Source: an uncultured virus (IMG/VR IMGVR_UViG_3300029305_005079)
Lineage: Duplodnaviria > Heunggongvirae > Uroviricota > Caudoviricetes
Virus record (IMG/VR): IMGVR_UViG_3300029305_005079
Length of the DNA: 64,000 nt
Strand: one strand, 5' to 3'
Part shown: positions 17,093 to 29,300 of the stretch, in pieces
Layout of the letters: every line of letters starts with the position of its first letter
Position numbering within the stretch: position 1 is the stretch's first letter
Position numbers and translations under genes: made by a program
The notes under the pieces: model-generated
Databases searched by the model: none
What the model was told of the DNA's origin: nothing
Seen by the model: the letters and a program-made list of their open reading frames with translations, nothing else

Positions 17093-17626
17093 TTACAAGC
17101 CAAGACTTTCGGCAGTTATAATCTCTTCGGAAATATAATTTCCTGTTTGCATATAAATACGTAATGCTTTTACAAAAGTATCTATAAGAGTAATATTTAT
17201 AGAAGGGGTTCCATATGGTTTAAATATTACACAAACTCTATTTGCATTGGCTATATCTACATTATCTTGCATCATACCTTCTGGTTTGGATAGATCATTT
17301 AAATAGCAAGTAATTTGGGTTAAGATATAATAGTCGTTATCTACAGTTTTTGAACATTTTATCGCCCCAAGTCGTATAGCTTTATTGTTATAAGAAATCA
17401 TAAGGGTATAAGAACCGGGCGCGAAAAATACAGATCTTTCACTTAAATCGCCGCTAACGCTTATAGCCCAATCTGGTAACCCATTTAACAGGTTTTCAAG
17501 AAAGTAATTAATTAATTCGCCAGCTTTTTCAAATTCTTTCTTTCCCTTATCTTCTCTTGTAGCTGCACGCTCAAGATCTACAGGAATTGCATTAAAGATT
17601 TCATTGATTTGGACATTGTCTTTCAT
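17093..17626 (-). CDS. hypothetical protein, tandem paralog family
   Basis: IFNAIPVDLERAATRED; early promoter 17666-17677. Confidence 0.65.
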   Translation of the reverse strand: MKDNVQINEIFNAIPVDLERAATREDKGKKEFEKAGELINYFLENLLNGLPDWAISVSGDLSERSVFFAPGSYTLMISYNNKAIRLGAIKCSKTVDNDYYILTQITCYLNDLSKPEGMMQDNVDIANANRVCVIFKPYGTPSINITLIDTFVKALRIYMQTGNYISEEIITAESLGL

Positions 17627-17726
17627 ATTATTCCTCCTAAGAAATAAATTTTATTTTATACATGATTATAATATACACTCAAAAAAAAATAAAAGGAAGA
17701 GCTTTAAAACAGCTCTTCCTTTCTTC

Positions 17727-18206: not shown

Positions 18207-18266
18207 AATTATATCTCCAAAATTATTATATAGAGGAAGAGTATGTATAACTCTTCCTCTATATTT

Positions 18267-21200
18267 TTAAATAAGGCTGATATACATAAGAATTTCTTCG
18301 CATATCAACTCCGGAATTACAGTAATTCGCTGACCGTCTAACTCGCAATCTTCAGGATCAATAATTTCAAATTCACTACTAAGAATGACAGCAATAATAC
18401 CAAGAATATGCTTCTCAATCTTATCATTCCTATACTTGTCTTTGATCTTTTCCCAAAGAGGAGAAGACTCCAGCTTGGTAAGCTCTTTCTTATTCACATT
18501 CTTACGTGTAGCAAGACGCAATACTTTAGAGCTTACGATATGAGGCAGCATAACCATTCCAGAAGCTTCTAGAATTCGCTTTGCTGCAATAATAAGCACA
18601 ATATAATCATCCAGATTGATCATATTTAACGCTGAGGTCATTTATATTCATATAAGGTCGTTAATCTTATACCGTTCTCTTATGAACTGCTATATGTCAC
18701 CATATAGATTAGACTATATCTTTATCCACTTATTTCAGTTGGGATAACTACCATTTCCACTCACTTGAGTGTACGTCTTATTAGACTAGTCGTTGAACCT
18801 TTCTATTATAGAATTGCAATTTTAAGATACATACATCCGTTAGAATCTATATCCGGCTCTATATTATATACTTGCTGTTTCATATATATTTCCGGAATAT
18901 CGTTTATATCTGAATAGATATGATGTATATCGCGATCATTCGCATCAAAACATTCTCGAATAGGTACAATCTTATATTTATAAGAATTTTGCCTAACTCC
19001 AGGATTTTGATGCTCTAAAATATCAGATAATTTTAAAATCATATCTTTAATCCTCCTATACTAGACTTGGCTGCTGATTGTCTCTCTCGAGAGTTCCCAG
19101 CAATTAAATAGTTGTTGTTTTCTCTGTATATTCCTATACAGGGGAACTTTCTCAAATCCCCAAAATACTTGAAAAATAAGTTAAATACTAAATCTCTCTG
19201 GAATGCATTTACGGTACATTTTGCTCCATCTGATAGTCTATGCTTATAATACTGAATCTCATCAGGATCAAAAGGACCGTACATAAGCTTTATTTGATTC
19301 ATAGCATCATCTGACGCTGTCTGTGCTTGTACTAACAGCGCAGTATCAGCTTTGTTGAGAAAACTTTCGAACTTGTCGAATTCACTCGTTTGTGTTCACA
19401 TAGGTCGCTAATCTATGCAGTTCTCTTATGAACTTCTATATATTTCTATACAGACCAGACTATATCATTACCCACTTATTTCAGTTGGGGTACTCTCCAT
19501 TTCGAACTCGCTTGAGCCCTACTCTACTTGATTCATCTATATACTTAAATGTCTTTCGATAGTCGTTGAACCTTCCTATATAGATAGGCTTGGCTGCTGA
19601 TTATCCCTACATGTATGATCAGAGGATTTCCCAGCAATTAAAAGAGTTTATTGTCATAGCATTCCTACTATGCTGAACTAGTTGTAATATTAATTCAGAT
19701 CTTCGTCACGTCTGGACGAGGAGAGCGAAATAAAACTAAATTCGTATTCTATATCCAAAATCTGGAAGCCTGTATTGCGTAAGATTGATTTATAATTAAG
19801 ATGGACAAGGTTGCCATCATAACGATACTTAGGCATAATATTTATCAATACATTCTGTACAGATTGTAGAGTATGAATACTTGTATTTATACCTCTAATA
19901 TCCTGCATATTCCAAATAGTCTGATTTCGTTTAGCAGTTCTCAGAACATTTGAGATTGCAGTTTCGTAGAGTTTGTTATATATGTCTATATCATACTTTC
20001 TGTCATATTGTTCGATAAGTATGTCATAGACACTTAAAATAAATTCCGTGGAATTGGTAATCCCACGGGCATACATAAAATGACACATTAATGGAATCAT
20101 ACAATTCATAATGGTAGATGCTTTCATCATCACCTGACCATGTCTCGTTATTTTCACCTAGACCGCGGCTAGGCAGTTATCAATCAAACTGTTACTAAGA
20201 TTGATATCATCTTTAGGATTTGCCTAAAGACAAGACTATATCTTCACCTTCAGCTCTACCTGTTAAGGTGCTCCCCATTTCGGATCTCGCTTGAGTCCTA
20301 CTCTACTCACTACTTCTATAAACGCCGGTGGTATTTATAGAAATGTTTTCGATAGTCGTTGAACCTTCAAACTGCGCCCTCCCCGGGCTTTATGTACTTC
20401 CGTGCGCCAGGGTTAAAAAGGTAAAAATGTGTTTCGTGGTTTGCCAATAAAAAGAAAAATACGTTCAATAAAAAGTTTCTGGTGCCGATGACAGGACTTG
20501 AACCTGCACGGACTTATCCACTGGTTCCTAAGACCAGCGTGTCTGCCAATTCCACCACATCGGCATATATTTATTAAAGCAAACAAACGAACTTCCAGGG
20601 TTTGGGGCGGCGTAGTGCTTGGCTGCTGATTGTCGATTGTCGATAATACTTAGAGTTTCCTCATATATCATCTTATCTGTTTTTTCTGACTTTCGTCTCT
20701 ATGGGAGCATGACGATAACTTTACGCCTTCTCCTGTAGTGGATAAGCTTTACGACTTCCCAGCAATTAGAGGAGTTTGTTCCGCTATATTTCTATATCGG
20801 AGTGACTAAAATTTTGTTGTAATCACTGTATTGCAAATTCGGATTCTTGAGATTTTTGTACGTCAAATTCAAAGAGTAGTTATCTCTATTCATGTATCCA
20901 ACTTTAAGAGAAATGGATCCATTCATAATATAACGTGTCAAATCGTAGAAGAATGCTTCTCTCGTATATGCAGGCTCATAATCGATAAGATACTTAAGTC
21001 TGCAATATATCATAGGAAGCTCATGCTCTAAGTCATAGAATTTTTCAAAGTAATTTAAATACTGAATTGTATGAGCTCTCATCTCAGGATTATTATAAGA
21101 ACGTTTCGTACTCATTACAAAGGCATCGAGCTGAGGATTCGGCTCCATACCAAAAAAGGAAGAAACGTCTAACATAATTGCCCCTCGGACGGTCTTGAAG

Positions 21201-21301
21201 ACCTCATCCTCAGGACACTCAGGTTGCCACTCATCAATAGCCGGTCGGTCGACTTTGTCGTGGAAAACCATTGGTTCAAATAATTCGTTGTTCAAGCTCA
21301 T
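18267..21301 (-). CDS. sigma-like promoter-specificity subunit of the non-virion RNAP (AR9 gp226/phiKZ gp68-like), 511 aa, 4 exons: 20822-21301, 19693-20145, 19156-19386, 18267-18638
   Basis: Removing three group I introns gives in-frame joins LQYSD|RHGQ, DEDLN|SEFDK and KYFGD|TSALN. Motifs KRSY, NKLY, IMPK, NAFQRDLV and EEILMYISLI match AR9 gp226 as recalled (not aligned). Early promoter at 21334-21345. Confidence 0.8.
18639..19155 (-). mobile_element. group I intron A (IA-like, 517 nt) with internal small ORF
   Basis: P AATTGCTGGG 19096-19105; Q AATCAGCAGC 19070-19079; R TTCAACGACTA 18787-18797; S GATATAGTC 18712-18720; P1 GGGGAU/GUUCCC with U.G; terminal G at 18639. Confidence 0.9.
18806..19042 (-). 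CDS. intron-encoded 78-aa hypothetical protein (P6 loop of intron A)
   Basis: own RBS AGGAGG; no LAGLIDADG, GIY-YIG or HNH motif. Confidence 0.7.
   Translation of the reverse strand: MILKLSDILEHQNPGVRQNSYKYKIVPIRECFDANDRDIHHIYSDINDIPEIYMKQQVYNIEPDIDSNGCMYLKIAIL
19387..19692 (-). mobile_element. group I intron B (306 nt, no cargo)
   Basis: P 19630-19639; Q 19593-19602; R 19560-19570; S 19458-19466; P1 CUGAAU/GUUCAG; terminal G at 19387. Confidence 0.9.
20146..20821 (-). mobile_element. group I intron C (676 nt) containing a tRNA gene
   Basis: P 20758-20767; Q 20622-20631; R 20353-20363; S 20234-20242; P1 AGUGAU/GUCACU; terminal G at 20146. Confidence 0.9.
20480..20564 (-). tRNA. trnL: tRNA-Leu(UAG) with encoded CCA, inside intron C
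   Basis: acceptor GCCGATG/CATCGGC + A-CCA; D loop TGG; anticodon stem CTGGT/ACCAG with loop CT-TAG-GA; long variable arm; GGTTCAAGTCC T arm. Confidence 0.95.
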
Positions 21302-21347
21302 TGTTTCAAAAACCTCCTAATTTATTTTCATCTTTATAATATACAGC

Positions 21348-22376: not shown

Positions 22377-22676
22377 CTATTTGATTATTTTAAAATAGCC
22401 ATAACATGTTTTATTTGATTTCATACCTTCTTTGATTTTAGGATCATCAGGATAAGGCAGTACATCAAATGGACCAGAATAGTCATATAATCCCGAATCT
22501 ATTCTGTCTTTTCCCTGATAAGCCCAATCTATTAAAACACATTCTATAGGTATTAAAGTATCTGGATTATCATACTCGATAGCTGCAAACATATTTTTAT
22601 CTTTTGTAGATTGCATTATTTTCCATCCACTTTTATCATTCTTCATAATTTCTATATAAGGTATTAAATTATTCAT
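22377..22676 (-). CDS. hypothetical protein
   Basis: coupled to the rtcB stop. Confidence 0.6.
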   Translation of the reverse strand: MNNLIPYIEIMKNDKSGWKIMQSTKDKNMFAAIEYDNPDTLIPIECVLIDWAYQGKDRIDSGLYDYSGPFDVLPYPDDPKIKEGMKSNKTCYGYFKIIK

Positions 22677-23818
22677 TTTGTTTCACCATCCGCTTTAAAG
22701 TTATATATTGGTCGGATTATACCATCAATTCTAACTGTATCGCTTATACGTTTAGTAAGATATTCCATCGATTTATAAGCCATGGGAGCTTCATCTATAG
22801 TACTTCTCATAATAGAAGTACTATAAATTCCTTTCATACTCTTTTTAAATTCAGAAAGAGTAATAGCATTTCTAGCTTCCTCTCTAGACATTAATCTTCC
22901 TGCTCCATGCGGTGCAGAATCGTTCCAATCTTCATTTGCTTTTCCTGTTACTATAAGCGATCCATCTCTCATATTAATCGGGACAATAGATCTCATCCCT
23001 CTAGCAGTAGAAATACAGCCTTTTCTCATTCTATATCTATTGCCAGCGTTATCAATAATAAGACGAATATAGTTATGACAGCTGTTAAGTCCATCAAATA
23101 TATCATATTTCCATTTCATTTCAACGCATATTCGTCTTAAAATGGTCAATCTATTTATATGAGCGAATTCTTCAAGCATATCTACATCTTCTACAAAATC
23201 TTCTGCAAACTCACCATCCAGATAAGTAAATGCGTAAGGTTCTTCAGGGTGCTGTTCTTTTGCCTTAGTTTTATAAAACTCTGCAACTTCAGCACCAAGA
23301 TGACGACTTCCGCTATGAACGATAAGCCAATAGTAGTCTTTGTCTCCTACAGTTTCGATACCAAGTTCAATGAAGTGATTTCCTCCACCGAGTGTTCCAA
23401 CACTTCTAAGAGCTTTATCCTTATTAAATACATTACAGTTAAGCAAATCTAGCATATCTCCATCCATAGCTAAATTATTTAAAGGTTTATCATAGATTCT
23501 CATTCCATTTGGAATTTCAAAATCTATAAATTTATCTAACTTTTCTAGATTAATTTTAGGCTTTCCATGAAGCCTAATTCCAGTTATTCCACATCCTATA
23601 TCACCTCCAAGCAATATAGGAGAAACTTTATCTTTTGTATCCATACTGGTACCGATAACACATCCGGCTCCTGCATGAACATCCGGCATAATTCTTATTT
23701 TAGCATCTTTTCCAATTGTACTATTTACAAGAGCATTTATTATACCTAATGAATTTGTATCAATTATATCTGTAAATACTTTGCAGTTTTCAGATATAAT
23801 AGTTTCATAATTTCCCAT
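22673..23818 (-). CDS. rtcB: RtcB-family RNA ligase
   Basis: MPDVHAG, GGDIGCG, GTLGGGNHFIE, VHSGSR, HN, RKG, SAPHGAGR, DEAPMAYK. Confidence 0.95.
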   Translation of the reverse strand: MGNYETIISENCKVFTDIIDTNSLGIINALVNSTIGKDAKIRIMPDVHAGAGCVIGTSMDTKDKVSPILLGGDIGCGITGIRLHGKPKINLEKLDKFIDFEIPNGMRIYDKPLNNLAMDGDMLDLLNCNVFNKDKALRSVGTLGGGNHFIELGIETVGDKDYYWLIVHSGSRHLGAEVAEFYKTKAKEQHPEEPYAFTYLDGEFAEDFVEDVDMLEEFAHINRLTILRRICVEMKWKYDIFDGLNSCHNYIRLIIDNAGNRYRMRKGCISTARGMRSIVPINMRDGSLIVTGKANEDWNDSAPHGAGRLMSREEARNAITLSEFKKSMKGIYSTSIMRSTIDEAPMAYKSMEYLTKRISDTVRIDGIIRPIYNFKADGETK

Positions 23819-23917
23819 TTTTTAATCCCTTTCATAATATAAAAGATTTTGATAATTTGGAACTTTGCACTGAATGATTTACCTTCAGTGCAATCCTTAT
23901 TTATGATTATTTCTCCT

Positions 23918-25395: not shown

Positions 25396-25854
25396 TTAGA
25401 GATTAACGGGTATGATTCCTTTAGCAATCTCATCTCTAACTTGCATAAGAATTTCCCCCAATTTGTTTCGTCCTCTCAAAGTAGTACGGTCAATACCCCA
25501 GTACATATCTCCCCATGTATTACCTTCGTATAATCCCGCACTTCCTGTATCTAAAAGCATTTTTGCCAATTCAGGATCTGAGAATTTTGCTTTTATTACA
25601 TCATACATAATCTGATCTTTAACATCTTCCCAATCAGGTCTTAATTTAACACGTCTTCCCAATCGTTTAGCCTCGGAAGGATTTAAATCGGAAAATCCTA
25701 GTCTACCATCTTTATTCATGCATTTAGCTGACTGGAAAGCAGCTTCAGAATTTCTATATCTTATCCCATCATAATAAATTGGATATTCATAAAAGTTGCT
25801 AAGAAAGGAATACTCTCCAGTAAAGCTGAGAATAATCTTAATATCATTTTTCAT
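25396..25854 (-). CDS. NADAR (YbiA-like) family protein
   Basis: FLSNFY, SEAAFQSAK, AKRLGR, LRPDWEDVK, EGNTWGDMYWG, GRNKLGEILM. Confidence 0.92.
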   Translation of the reverse strand: MKNDIKIILSFTGEYSFLSNFYEYPIYYDGIRYRNSEAAFQSAKCMNKDGRLGFSDLNPSEAKRLGRRVKLRPDWEDVKDQIMYDVIKAKFSDPELAKMLLDTGSAGLYEGNTWGDMYWGIDRTTLRGRNKLGEILMQVRDEIAKGIIPVNL

Positions 25855-26310: not shown

Positions 26311-29300
26311 TTAAAATACAGGATTTGACATCTTTCCCTTGTCTTCTTCAAGGCAGAGAGTAAGATTGTACAAACTCTGAATGGCTTCTTTATCGGAAGT
26401 TCTAACACCCTTAGAACCAAGATTAAAGTAATGAGATTTAGCTCGTAACTGTTCATCTAATTCAGCATTAGCCTCTTCTGAAAAGACTCCTTTGATCGTA
26501 ACTTGGTCACCATCCTAAATAATTTTATGCTCGCAACGCATTTCCTATCTTTCGATAGTAATTAGACTATATCATATCAAGAATACTCTTGATCTCCCCG
26601 CTTCGAATCGTCATTAGCCTACGATCCTACTCTACTTGATTCATCATATAGATGTCTTTCGATAGTCGTTGAACCTTCTCTTTATATAAAGAGCTTGGCT
26701 GCTGATTGACATAGGATTTATCCCTTAGCTTTCCAGCAATTCAAGGAGTTTAAGGATTACAATCGGTGAAGTTTATAATCCGTATTGGATTTATGATTTA
26801 TACATACTACCTTTATTTTCATAAAGGGCTAGACTATATCTTATCTCTTATAGAGATCTTCCCGTTTCGGATGTCTCCTACTCTACTCGATTCATATTTC
26901 TATGTCTTTCGATAGTCGTTGAACGTTCTCCCTTATTAGAGAGCTTCGCTGCTGATTAGCATATCTTTTGACTTAGCTTTCCAGCAATTAGAGAAGTGTT
27001 TATTTACATCGGAGGCAATTAATGATGGTTTACCACCGATGCCGTCAAGGTATAGATTGGTCAAATTCAAAGTATCAATAAATCTATTTGATGTATTTGA
27101 ACCAATATCGTTTTGACGGATAAGAGGATAATTCTTATAATAAGTACCATTGATAATCATAGGTTCTGTCTTTGTAGTAGACGAGATTCTTACTTTTGTA
27201 GGGAATTGGTTAAAGTAGCTATCGCAATATCTTCATATGGAGTCGTTAATTCCATACCGCTTTTTAAAGCAGCTCTAGCTCACGCTAGAAGTTGAGACTA
27301 TATCTTTACCCTTTCGGGTACTCCCCATTTCCACTCACTTGAGTGTACTCCATTTCTGGATAGTCGTTGAACATTATTCAATACATGTAAAGAATTTCTT
27401 TTCCAAGTGATCTAGCAAATTCTATTTCACTTTTTGTAGATTTTCCAATATAGCCATCTTTATTTATTACATAAATAGCATCAGCCATACGAATTTTTTC
27501 TTTATGCATTCTATCAAGCATTTCTTTATTTGAACCTTCCCAAGCTTCTTCATCGCCTGAATGTCCAAATAAACCCACAGAGATAACTATATTCCCTCTA
27601 AGAGTAAGCTCTTTTTGAGCTTTGATAAAGTCATCTTTAAATTTTGTCGAACCGCATAAAGTAATTATTGGAAATCTGAAATTATTAATGATTGAATCTT
27701 TGCTGCTGATTGTCTCTATAACTGTATTATCTGAAGAGAAATTATAATTTTTCTTTTCGATAAGCCTATTAATATTGATTCGTTTAAGTAGATATATGTG
27801 TTCATCTTGTTTGATTATTTCTTGCAGTTCATCTACTTTGGGAAGAGTAGAAAATCTGTATCTTTCATAATCATTAAAGAAGTCTATATATACCTCTCTA
27901 GCCATATATGGTGATGTATATGCAGGTTGGAATATCCAATTAGATCTTATATCAGATCCGTCTACATATATTTTGAGATATATACATCTATTGTCACCAG
28001 GCACAAAATACTGTCTTGAGTTATTGAATACAGCTGTATAAATTTCTTTAATATTCTGAACTTGATAGGCTGTAAGCGCTATCTTTTCAGGACTAGCTGT
28101 TTTAATAAAATTATCTACAAAATCACTCATATTTATCACTCCTTTATTATATTACTAAAATGATAAGATATGATTATAGTTGTAATAAGAGACGTCCCAG
28201 CAATTAAAGGAGTTTTCACTAGTAGATTTCTCTACTAGGCGACCAATTTGATCGGATATCTAGTTATTAGAACATGCTTATCCTTAGTTGCTTCAACTGC
28301 AGCCATATAAAGAACATCACACCATGTGAGATCTCGCTCCATAATAGGAAGCTGTCCAGGATCGTGCTTAGCATATTCTTCCTCTGTCATACCATATCCC
28401 TTAAATCTAAGAACCACAGTTGGTCCTTCTACAGTAGGAACCCTGATCGGAATAAATCTATTTGAGAATCCGGTACAAAATCTATCGATTTCTTTACGGA
28501 TTCTTTCATCGGAGAATTCAACCTGGTAATCCTTTGGATGCAAATAAGATACTGTTCCATTCTTAACCATAGGGATTACGGAGTCTCCGGAAAATTCATT
28601 TTCAAAGAATCTTCTTACATGATAAACTACAAAAGGTAAGAAGTTTACGCATGCAGATGCTAGAGGAAGCAAGGAATAATCCAAATCAGCCTCAATATCA
28701 TCTAAGCGTTCAACTTTCAATTCAGGAGCGGAAAGAACAAGACGTGAACCATAGTCAGTAGTCTTACTCATAACAGCTCTTCTTAGAATACCTGTCTTAC
28801 CAGGAATTATGTTTGTAGTCTTCTCTCCATTAATAGTAGTACCAGAACCAAACCAGTCGTAAATTTGTACAAGAGTTTCTTGAATTCTACCTCTTGTAGC
28901 AGCATTTAGATTTAGTCCGTATTCTGAAGATTCTTTAAGAGCTTTTACAAAAATAATAAGATTTCTATAAAGCTCATTAATCTCTCCTACAGCAACGTGT
29001 CCGCCTTCAGTGTTAACGTCTCTATAGTATGCAGGACATACTACAAATTTGCGGATAAACATTTCCGGAGTACCCATATATTTTTCAATAAATTGGACTC
29101 TCATATCACGTTGTCTAGAAGAGGTTCTTTTAAGTTTAAATTTGTCTATATTTTTTCTAATGAATCCAATACCATTTTCGCCATTCTCATCAGGAACTAG
29201 TTCTCCATCTTTAATAATGAAAGTATTAGTACCATGAACGCATGCTTTGATATTGGAATCTATTTTGCACCACATTTTATAGATAAGAGGATTCATAAAA

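Follow-up and report, generated by a model that had tools for sequence, protein, structure and literature searches.

We analysed a 64,000-nt stretch of DNA (hereafter the window) from an uncultured member of the Caudoviricetes (IMG/VR record IMGVR_UViG_3300029305_005079), in which a gene for a probable RNA polymerase subunit is divided into four exons by three group I introns. The first intron, I1, holds a tRNA-Leu gene in the loop of its P6 stem; every feature of the split gene, of I1 and of the tRNA lies on the minus strand. An initial annotation, made from the letters of the sequence, had described a tRNA-Leu(UAG) with encoded CCA that shares the strand of the intron and occupies its P6 loop, set between AT-rich spacers and GC-rich arms that could close P6, and ARAGORN, Rfam and the predicted arm duplexes bear out each of these points. 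The nesting of a tRNA-Leu within a group I intron of a protein gene is confirmed.

ARAGORN reports this tRNA-Leu (anticodon tag) as the sole tRNA in the window, and its fold, recovered also with the Rfam tRNA model (RF00005, gathering score 29 bits), is a cloverleaf with a 7-nt anticodon loop, a long variable arm, and a T-loop. The tRNA is under structural selection. Across four full copies from related lineages, described below, the 23 pairs of the 5 helices are maintained throughout (paired stem cells, 92 of 92). Changes on both sides are seen in 15 of these 23 pairs, including all 5 of the anticodon stem; none of 500 shuffles equals this pattern, and slid controls pair in 30–46% of cells. 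Identity between lineages is 66–80% for the tRNA and 57–78% for the ribozyme core, as compared with 39–60% for the spacers flanking the tRNA. A73 followed by CCA is invariant in all four full copies; A73, the discriminator base, is an identity element for leucyl-tRNA synthetase (LeuRS). Querying phages with the P6 insert (blastn) returned generic likeness to tRNA-Leu only, and a search of genome contigs with the tRNA's 3′ half gave 19 matches in scattered phyla and no clue to the phage's host.

The intron is recognized by the Rfam Intron_gpI model (RF00028, gathering score 50 bits) as a single full-length match (model positions 1–253; window 20211–20831; 55.3 bits, E = 2.7e-11), such that the intron halves on either side of the tRNA belong to one and the same hit. 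The Rfam alignment assigns a 220-nt insertion containing the tRNA to the terminal loop of the P6 stem, and a further insertion of ~100 nt to P5. At the 5′ splice site, exon 1 ends ...CAGUGAU at 20822, with the last U paired to a G in P1; as read from the sequence, P1 pairs AGUGAU/U (the slash marking the splice site) with AGUCACU. The intron terminates with a G at 20146 (...AACG), and the first codons of exon 2, beginning at 20145, are AGA CAU GGU CAG (RHGQ). This 3′ end resembles those of the two sister introns of the same gene, which end ...GUGAACACAAACG and ...AUGAAUAUAAAUG. No endonuclease open reading frame (ORF) was found in I1; on its sense strand just two ORFs reach 40 aa, one of 57 and one of 47 aa, and both overlap the tRNA.

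The arms that would close the extended P6 stem are paired in all five intron variants recovered, despite their different sequences, with predicted duplex energies of −13.8 to −21.8 kcal/mol that are matched by 1–23 of 300 shuffles; by eye, the pairings are CGCC/GGCG, AUGCC/GGCAU, GCGUC/GGCGC, CUGUC/GGCAG, and GCUACGC/GCGUAGC. The 3′ arm additionally includes a local hairpin (window 20381–20412) whose motif, ACGG-AGU-(U)UACAUAAG, is shared by three of the five variants and is not found in those of loci L011 and L083 (loci are designated by L numbers and sequencing runs by X numbers).

Exon 1 has relatives at 65 IMG/VR loci. At the site of I1 the coding sequence is contiguous in 56 of these (51 with zero residual gap), interrupted by a gap of 621–662 nt in six, and without an exon 2 in the remaining three. 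The site falls within a conserved motif (LQYTNKHG in the intron-less L016), and removal of I1 restores a continuous reading frame that the relatives conserve. The intron coordinates 20146–20821 and the QYSD/RHGQ exon junction put forward in the initial annotation are exact, the 56 contiguous relatives confirming the junction. The six interrupted loci (L007/8/9, L010, and L011/12) are the closest relatives of the window, with exon 2 81–91% identical to its own, and the next lineage (L013, 71%) has no intron at the site. Each gap is filled by a group I intron homologous to I1 (alignment A1, 71% column identity); the orthologous copies score 50.5 (L010), 51.0 (L011), and 38.9 bits (L007) against RF00028, the last being under the gathering score.

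A search of related phages for the same intron with and without the tRNA, as the initial annotation had proposed, thus recovers I1-type introns in five related lineages (window/L006, L007/8/9, L010, L011/12, and L083), four of which retain a tRNA-Leu: with anticodon UAG in the window/L006, L007/8/9, and L083 lineages, and with UAA in L011/12. The fifth, L010 (4475–5105), contains a stump at the tRNA position, consisting of a 7-bp acceptor stem, a T-arm, and CCA with no anticodon or variable arm; this may be a decaying gene, or else a minimal substrate still recognized by tRNA-processing enzymes. L083 is an unrelated contig, found by a pattern scan of metagenomes, with a tRNA-Leu(UAG), the intron's 3′ half, and an exon 2 that is 76% identical to that of the window. 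Among the 70 loci covered by tRNA scans (of which L001, L002, and L004 cover the same contigs as L006 and L007/8/9), tRNAs occur at two places only: the P6-loop site and a free-standing tRNA-Met of the L007 group. The 90%-complete, 224-kb relative represented by L007 encodes two tRNAs, and two other relatives encode none. Compact introns that share the P3′–P8 block with I1 are found at other sites in other phages, and these contain no tRNA.

A pattern scan of viral contigs (CAGCAGCCAAG-N95-125-T-loop) had 12 matches, six of which belong to the known clade. The others were rejected: L071 and L074 are chance matches in coding sequence beside a free tRNA, L073 and L079 contain neither a tRNA nor an intron, and the introns at L075 and L080 are compact and tRNA-free.

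Intron I1 is excised as RNA. The stretch was found in 20 runs in public archives, drawn from 14 studies and with two exceptions labeled as animal gut or feces, and the RNA evidence consists of contigs from the one clear metatranscriptome run, X19; run X18, labeled RNA, is probably DNA and was left out of this evidence. One X19 contig (record 18; 179 nt, 0–1 differences) reads in RNA sense from window position 20265 to 20146 and then from 20817 to 20760, with one A at the joint assignable to either side, so that G20146 is joined to A20818, the fourth base of the intron. This junction is that expected of an excised group I intron circularized with loss of three bases, and the same permuted order recurs in two contigs of a sequence variant (records 19 and 20). 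The circle junction is independent evidence for the position of the 3′ splice site, in agreement with the protein alignment. X19 has no or little cover in the exon bins and in most of the P6 insert, and no contig with ligated exons; these low-cover parts were not used to judge mRNA level, DNA carry-over, or tRNA excision.

At the DNA level, two contigs of run X5 overlap within the tRNA at 20519–20547: record 26 (25.6 kb), which carries exon 1 and the 5′ half of the intron, and record 24, which carries the 3′ half and exon 2. The same succession, from exon 1 through the 5′ half of I1, the tRNA, and the 3′ half of I1 to exon 2, recurs on five other IMG/VR contigs that represent three additional sequence types (L007/8/9, L010, and L011/12), and the window's own sequence type recurs on L006, which ends inside the intron past the tRNA. 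Misassembly, which had been named as a way in which the observation might fail, is contradicted by these contigs.

Depth over the tRNA (window 20447–20553) is 10 to 700 times that of its flanks in DNA runs X1, X5, and X18. This excess implies that tRNA-Leu genes at least 88% alike are abundant in the same gut samples, and such genes could hint at the donor of the tRNA or at the host of the phage.

Evidence for the identity of the split gene comes largely from the intron-less homolog at L016 (3878–5551; 558 aa). Residues 67–477 of this protein match PDB 7s01_A (464 aa; E = 7.3e-12), which is labeled in its record as a DNA-directed RNA polymerase subunit and which we take to be gp226 of phage AR9, and the protein also matches phrog_25005, annotated as RNA polymerase (E = 3e-20). 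In AR9, gp226 is described as a fifth subunit of the non-virion RNA polymerase, one that combines binding of the polymerase core with promoter recognition; initiation at late promoters requires it, and in formal terms it is the equivalent of a sigma factor (PMC7598289, PMC13282480). It is reasonable, on the strength of these matches, to regard the split gene as encoding a gp226-like promoter-recognition subunit of the phage non-virion RNA polymerase, in keeping with its earlier description as a late sigma-like factor. Megablast comparison of the gene with cultured phages matched only patches of 43–86 nt in the intron core; tblastn found no match for exon 1 and, for exon 2, only g245 of Yersinia phage phiR1-37, at 21% identity.

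As for the other two introns of the gene, 17 of the 65 related loci have an intron-sized gap between exons 2 and 3, while the window is the only one of them with an intron at the exon 3/exon 4 site. The P6 loop of I3—the same slot as that occupied by the tRNA in I1—is filled by a 78-aa ORF (19042..18806, minus strand) behind an AGGAGG ribosome-binding site, for which no Pfam or PHROG match was found. In a DNA allele from X5, a chicken-gut run, I2 is missing exactly at the inferred place (309 nt skipped, with 3 other letters inserted), and ~1.35 kb of extra DNA lies inside exon 2 at window position 19830/19831; intron content therefore varies between very close strains. Coordinates for the gene and its components are given in Table 1.

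Table 1. Features of the split RNA polymerase subunit gene and of intron I1, in order of transcription (window coordinates)
Feature	Coordinates	Strand	Description and basis
TATATTAT-N6-G motif, candidate promoter of the split gene	21336..21343	-	35 nt upstream of start codon
Exon 1	20822..21301	-	160 aa, ends ...NLQYSD; 65 IMG/VR relatives
Group I intron I1	20146..20821	-	676 nt; P7.1/P7.2-type insert; RF00028, contiguous homologs, and circle junction
P5 loop insertion of I1	20642..20740	-	~100 nt; conserved in all full-length copies aligned (Rfam alignment; four-intron alignment A1)
5′ arm of extended P6	20595..20621	-	CCAAGCACUACGCCGCCCCAAACCCUGG; Rfam structure line; arm–arm duplex −21.8 kcal/mol
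AU-rich 5′ spacer (leader) before tRNA	20565..20594	-	Without TATATTAT motif
tRNA-Leu(UAG)	20480..20564	-	85 nt, long variable arm, A73, encoded CCA; ARAGORN; RF00005 58 bits
U-rich 3′ spacer (trailer)	20413..20479	-	Without terminator-like hairpin
3′ arm of extended P6	20368..20412	-	Includes local hairpin with ACGG-AGU-ACAUAA, recurring in L007 and L010
3′ half of ribozyme core (P7, P7.1/7.2, P3′, P8, P7′, P9)	20211..20367	-	Rfam alignment
3′ extension after P9	20146..20210	-	Two hairpins; ends ...GUGAAAAUAACG
Exon 2	19693..20145	-	151 aa, RHGQ...EDLN; phrog_25005 E = 3.2e-9
Group I intron I2	19387..19692	-	306 nt, no cargo; RF00028 91.1 bits
Exon 3	19156..19386	-	77 aa
Group I intron I3	18639..19155	-	517 nt; RF00028 44.5 bits, below gathering score
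Exon 4	18267..18638	-	123 aa and stop
Candidate terminator of the split gene	18228..18264	-	15-bp hairpin directly past stop codon

Two neighboring genes lie upstream on the minus strand. An RtcB RNA ligase gene (window 22673–23818; PF01139, E = 8.9e-49) lies 1.4 kb upstream of the split gene; its presence would suit a phage with an investment in maintaining tRNAs, and it may serve tRNA repair during infection, though this is an association only. Farther along, a gene with a NADAR domain (window 25396–25854; PF08719, E = 3.8e-24) lies upstream of the intron-rich gene, and three more group I intron matches are present on the minus strand at 27273–27501 (39.8 bits, below the cut-off), 26810–27041 (95.4 bits), and 26543–26787 (78.9 bits). 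The 22-nt gap between the last two suggests a micro-exon.

Expression of the tRNA can be considered in light of the transcription signals around it. The motif listed in Table 1 as a candidate promoter of the split gene resembles the early-promoter consensus of AR9, given as AAATATATATTAT-(6N)-G (PMC5312081), and the same motif lies upstream of the RtcB gene (23834–23841) and of the ORF starting at 17626 (17668–17675). It is not enriched in the window as a whole, where 17 instances were found as compared with ~20 expected. The free-standing tRNA-Met(CAU) of the L007 group (L007:7540-7720) has TATATTAT 19 nt upstream and a hairpin with a T-run downstream. Around the P6-loop tRNA, no promoter or terminator of any type scanned was found, and on this ground we infer that the tRNA is co-transcribed with the split gene. 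Its supply would then be coupled to transcription of that gene, a proposal with no basis other than the absence of a promoter-like motif or terminator beside the tRNA.

We consider it likely, at a probability of roughly 70%, that the P6 slot occupied by a homing-endonuclease gene in the phage T4 td intron here carries a working tRNA-Leu gene, whose product is made along with the split gene and cut from the pre-mRNA or from the excised intron. The tRNA would have no promoter or terminator of its own and would depend for its transcription on a promoter of the TATATTAT type ahead of exon 1. Pairing of the GC-rich P6 arms would clamp the ribozyme while the tRNA folds separately as a side domain. 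Host RNase P would then cut the 5′ end of the tRNA and 3′ nucleases the other, acting on either the pre-mRNA or the excised intron, and release by RNase P and 3′ trimming would presumably be followed by charging. If RNase P acted before splicing, the nicked ribozyme could be held together by the P6 arms and the exons still be ligated; division of the ribozyme would not necessarily block the reaction, given that trans-splicing by a td intron in two pieces, a relative of I1, is in routine use, including in vitro (PMC1920258). The released tRNA would serve phage translation of CUN codons, and in return would give selection a reason to keep an endonuclease-free intron.

A more elaborate version of this proposal is possible, though we hold it only tentatively: that I1 is a two-product unit, in which the tRNA is cut during or before ribozyme action and the exons are ligated by the resulting two pieces, clamped by the P6 arms, one tRNA-Leu being delivered per sigma-like transcript and the tRNA, as successor to an endonuclease in the P6 slot, paying for retention of the intron. 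The RNase P nick would in that case switch a group I intron from cis to trans in nature, and the anticodon could be retuned between UAG and UAA, since LeuRS does not read the anticodon.

Several observations weigh against a working tRNA supplied by the intron. The P6 arm duplexes are only moderately better than those of shuffled sequences, and the whole P6 insert folds with a free energy no better than that of shuffled sequence (z 0.05). L010 keeps its intron though the anticodon and variable arms are gone, which indicates that the tRNA is dispensable for the intron and able to decay. A count over 57 ORFs of the window puts CUN at 75% of leucine codons and CUU at 47%, but CUA at just 7.4%, which leaves the argument from codon supply weak. 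The mature 85-nt tRNA, its ends, and its charging rest on inference, and the intron may contain an unrecognized promoter, the promoter motif being that of AR9.

Alternative explanations differ in how they account for the cloverleaf. It might be a structural or protein-recruiting module of the ribozyme that is not released for decoding: either a peripheral domain that comes already folded, or a docking site through which LeuRS or some other tRNA-binding protein assists folding of the intron. The location of the insert on P4–P6 is suggestive here, P4–P6 being the domain bound by tRNA-synthetase splicing cofactors (CYT-18/mtTyrRS; yeast mitochondrial LeuRS), and L010, which has lost the anticodon arm, still has a minihelix of acceptor and T-arm with CCA. 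The four full copies, however, all keep a leucine anticodon within a canonical 7-nt loop together with its stem, A73, and CCA, features that a scaffold could do without; the AU-rich, single-stranded spacers of 44–128 nt between tRNA and P6 arms would make a poor rigid connection, and the compact relatives of the intron at other sites do without any such module. We therefore regard this role as unlikely. A neutral passenger, landed by chance in a tolerant loop and now decaying without function for phage or intron, appears slightly less probable still. The truncated copy in L010 is what decay would produce, and the 78-aa ORF of I3 exemplifies the tolerance of P6 loops for large inserts; but complete pairing of the stems with changes on both sides of most pairs, conservation of the tRNA at the level of the ribozyme core while its spacers drift, and its retention in four lineages whose exon 2 is just 76–91% identical to that of the window are all contrary to neutral decay. 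The joining of a bacterial tRNA-Leu into a phage contig during assembly has a negligible probability. Contigs from DNA runs do break within the tRNA, and the tRNA bin is covered to great depth (2944 in X1), similar tRNA genes being abundant in the samples; yet the arrangement recurs in independent assemblies and in diverged sequence types, the two X5 contigs overlap across the point in question, and the flanking intron halves give one Rfam match.

The tRNA might also be an independent gene, transcribed from its own unrecognized phage promoter within the P6 loop, so that its supply would not be tied to the split gene. A precedent is described for AR9, in which an intron of late gene g189 contains gene g190 together with its own early promoter (PMC5312081), and the leader in I1 is AT-rich, with an AUAUAU-like run directly before the tRNA in four of the five variants. 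Against this, the 5′ spacer contains no TATATTAT-N6-G motif, and the partial matches in L011 and L083 would put the transcription start inside the tRNA. Matches to a sigma-70-like promoter are at chance level (20 found, 19.6 expected), and hairpin promoters are represented in the window by only two weak C(TANC)G hairpins, neither of them near the tRNA. Nor is the tRNA followed by a terminator-like site anywhere up to exon 2, unlike the free-standing tRNA-Met. An independent gene accordingly seems about as improbable as a scaffold, and a working tRNA made with the split gene remains our preferred explanation.

Phage group I introns are known for carrying homing endonucleases, and here the cargo is a tRNA under selection; a "selfish" intron can thus carry a gene useful to the genome that hosts it, which offers a reason for an endonuclease-free intron to persist. 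The arrangement would tie one of the only one or two tRNAs of a ~220-kb phage to a gene for the switch to late transcription. It also brings RNase P and other tRNA-maturation enzymes together with a self-splicing ribozyme on one 676-nt RNA, providing a natural system in which to study their order of action. Group I introns are already used for making circular RNAs, and the tolerance of P6 for a full tRNA points to a design by which small RNAs could be released from intron scaffolds.

Group I introns and leucine tRNAs already occur together in the tRNA-Leu(UAA) intron of cyanobacteria and plastids, in which the intron lies within the anticodon loop of the tRNA; the topology in I1 is the reverse. 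The proposed release of the tRNA has mechanistic parallels in RNAs cut from longer transcripts by RNase P and 3′ nucleases, such as in mitochondrial tRNA punctuation and the MALAT1 mascRNA, and in small RNAs that can mature from excised spliceosomal introns, though to our knowledge none of these involves a self-splicing ribozyme with a helix interrupted by the tRNA.

Among phages, the T4 td intron provides a close structural parallel: a phage protein gene is split by a group I intron of the P7.1/P7.2 type, and cargo, here the I-TevI ORF, is looped out from P6 (PMC3073962). The td cargo, however, is a protein gene that makes the intron mobile, whereas that of I1 is a tRNA with no accompanying endonuclease ORF. 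The AR9 g189 intron is likewise comparable, as a gene-holding intron in an RNA polymerase subunit gene of an AR9-type jumbo phage, but, as described, g190 is protein-coding and has an early promoter of its own.

The initial annotation knew of no described case. For phage introns this stands within the full texts searched, a body that excludes most subscription journals: we found none that describes a group I intron of a phage or bacterium with a tRNA as its cargo. It does not hold overall, since the ND5-717 group I intron of hexacoral mitochondria, which appears to be the closest published case, is described in corallimorpharians as containing within its P8 insert two rRNA genes, one tRNA gene, and 12 oxidative phosphorylation genes, the number of genes in the insert ranging from 2 (sea anemones) to 16 (~18–19 kb; corallimorpharians) (PMC6545197). 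As in I1, a group I intron of a protein-coding gene there holds ordinary genes of the genome, on the same strand, in a peripheral loop. The ND5-717 insert, on the account given of it, is a mitochondrial, multi-gene insert in P8 that is removed by back-splicing from a permuted transcript, whereas I1 is a compact phage intron with its insert in P6 and a tRNA as sole cargo. Loop cargo as such is therefore known; what appears to be new at this locus is a lone tRNA carried in a peripheral loop of a phage group I intron.

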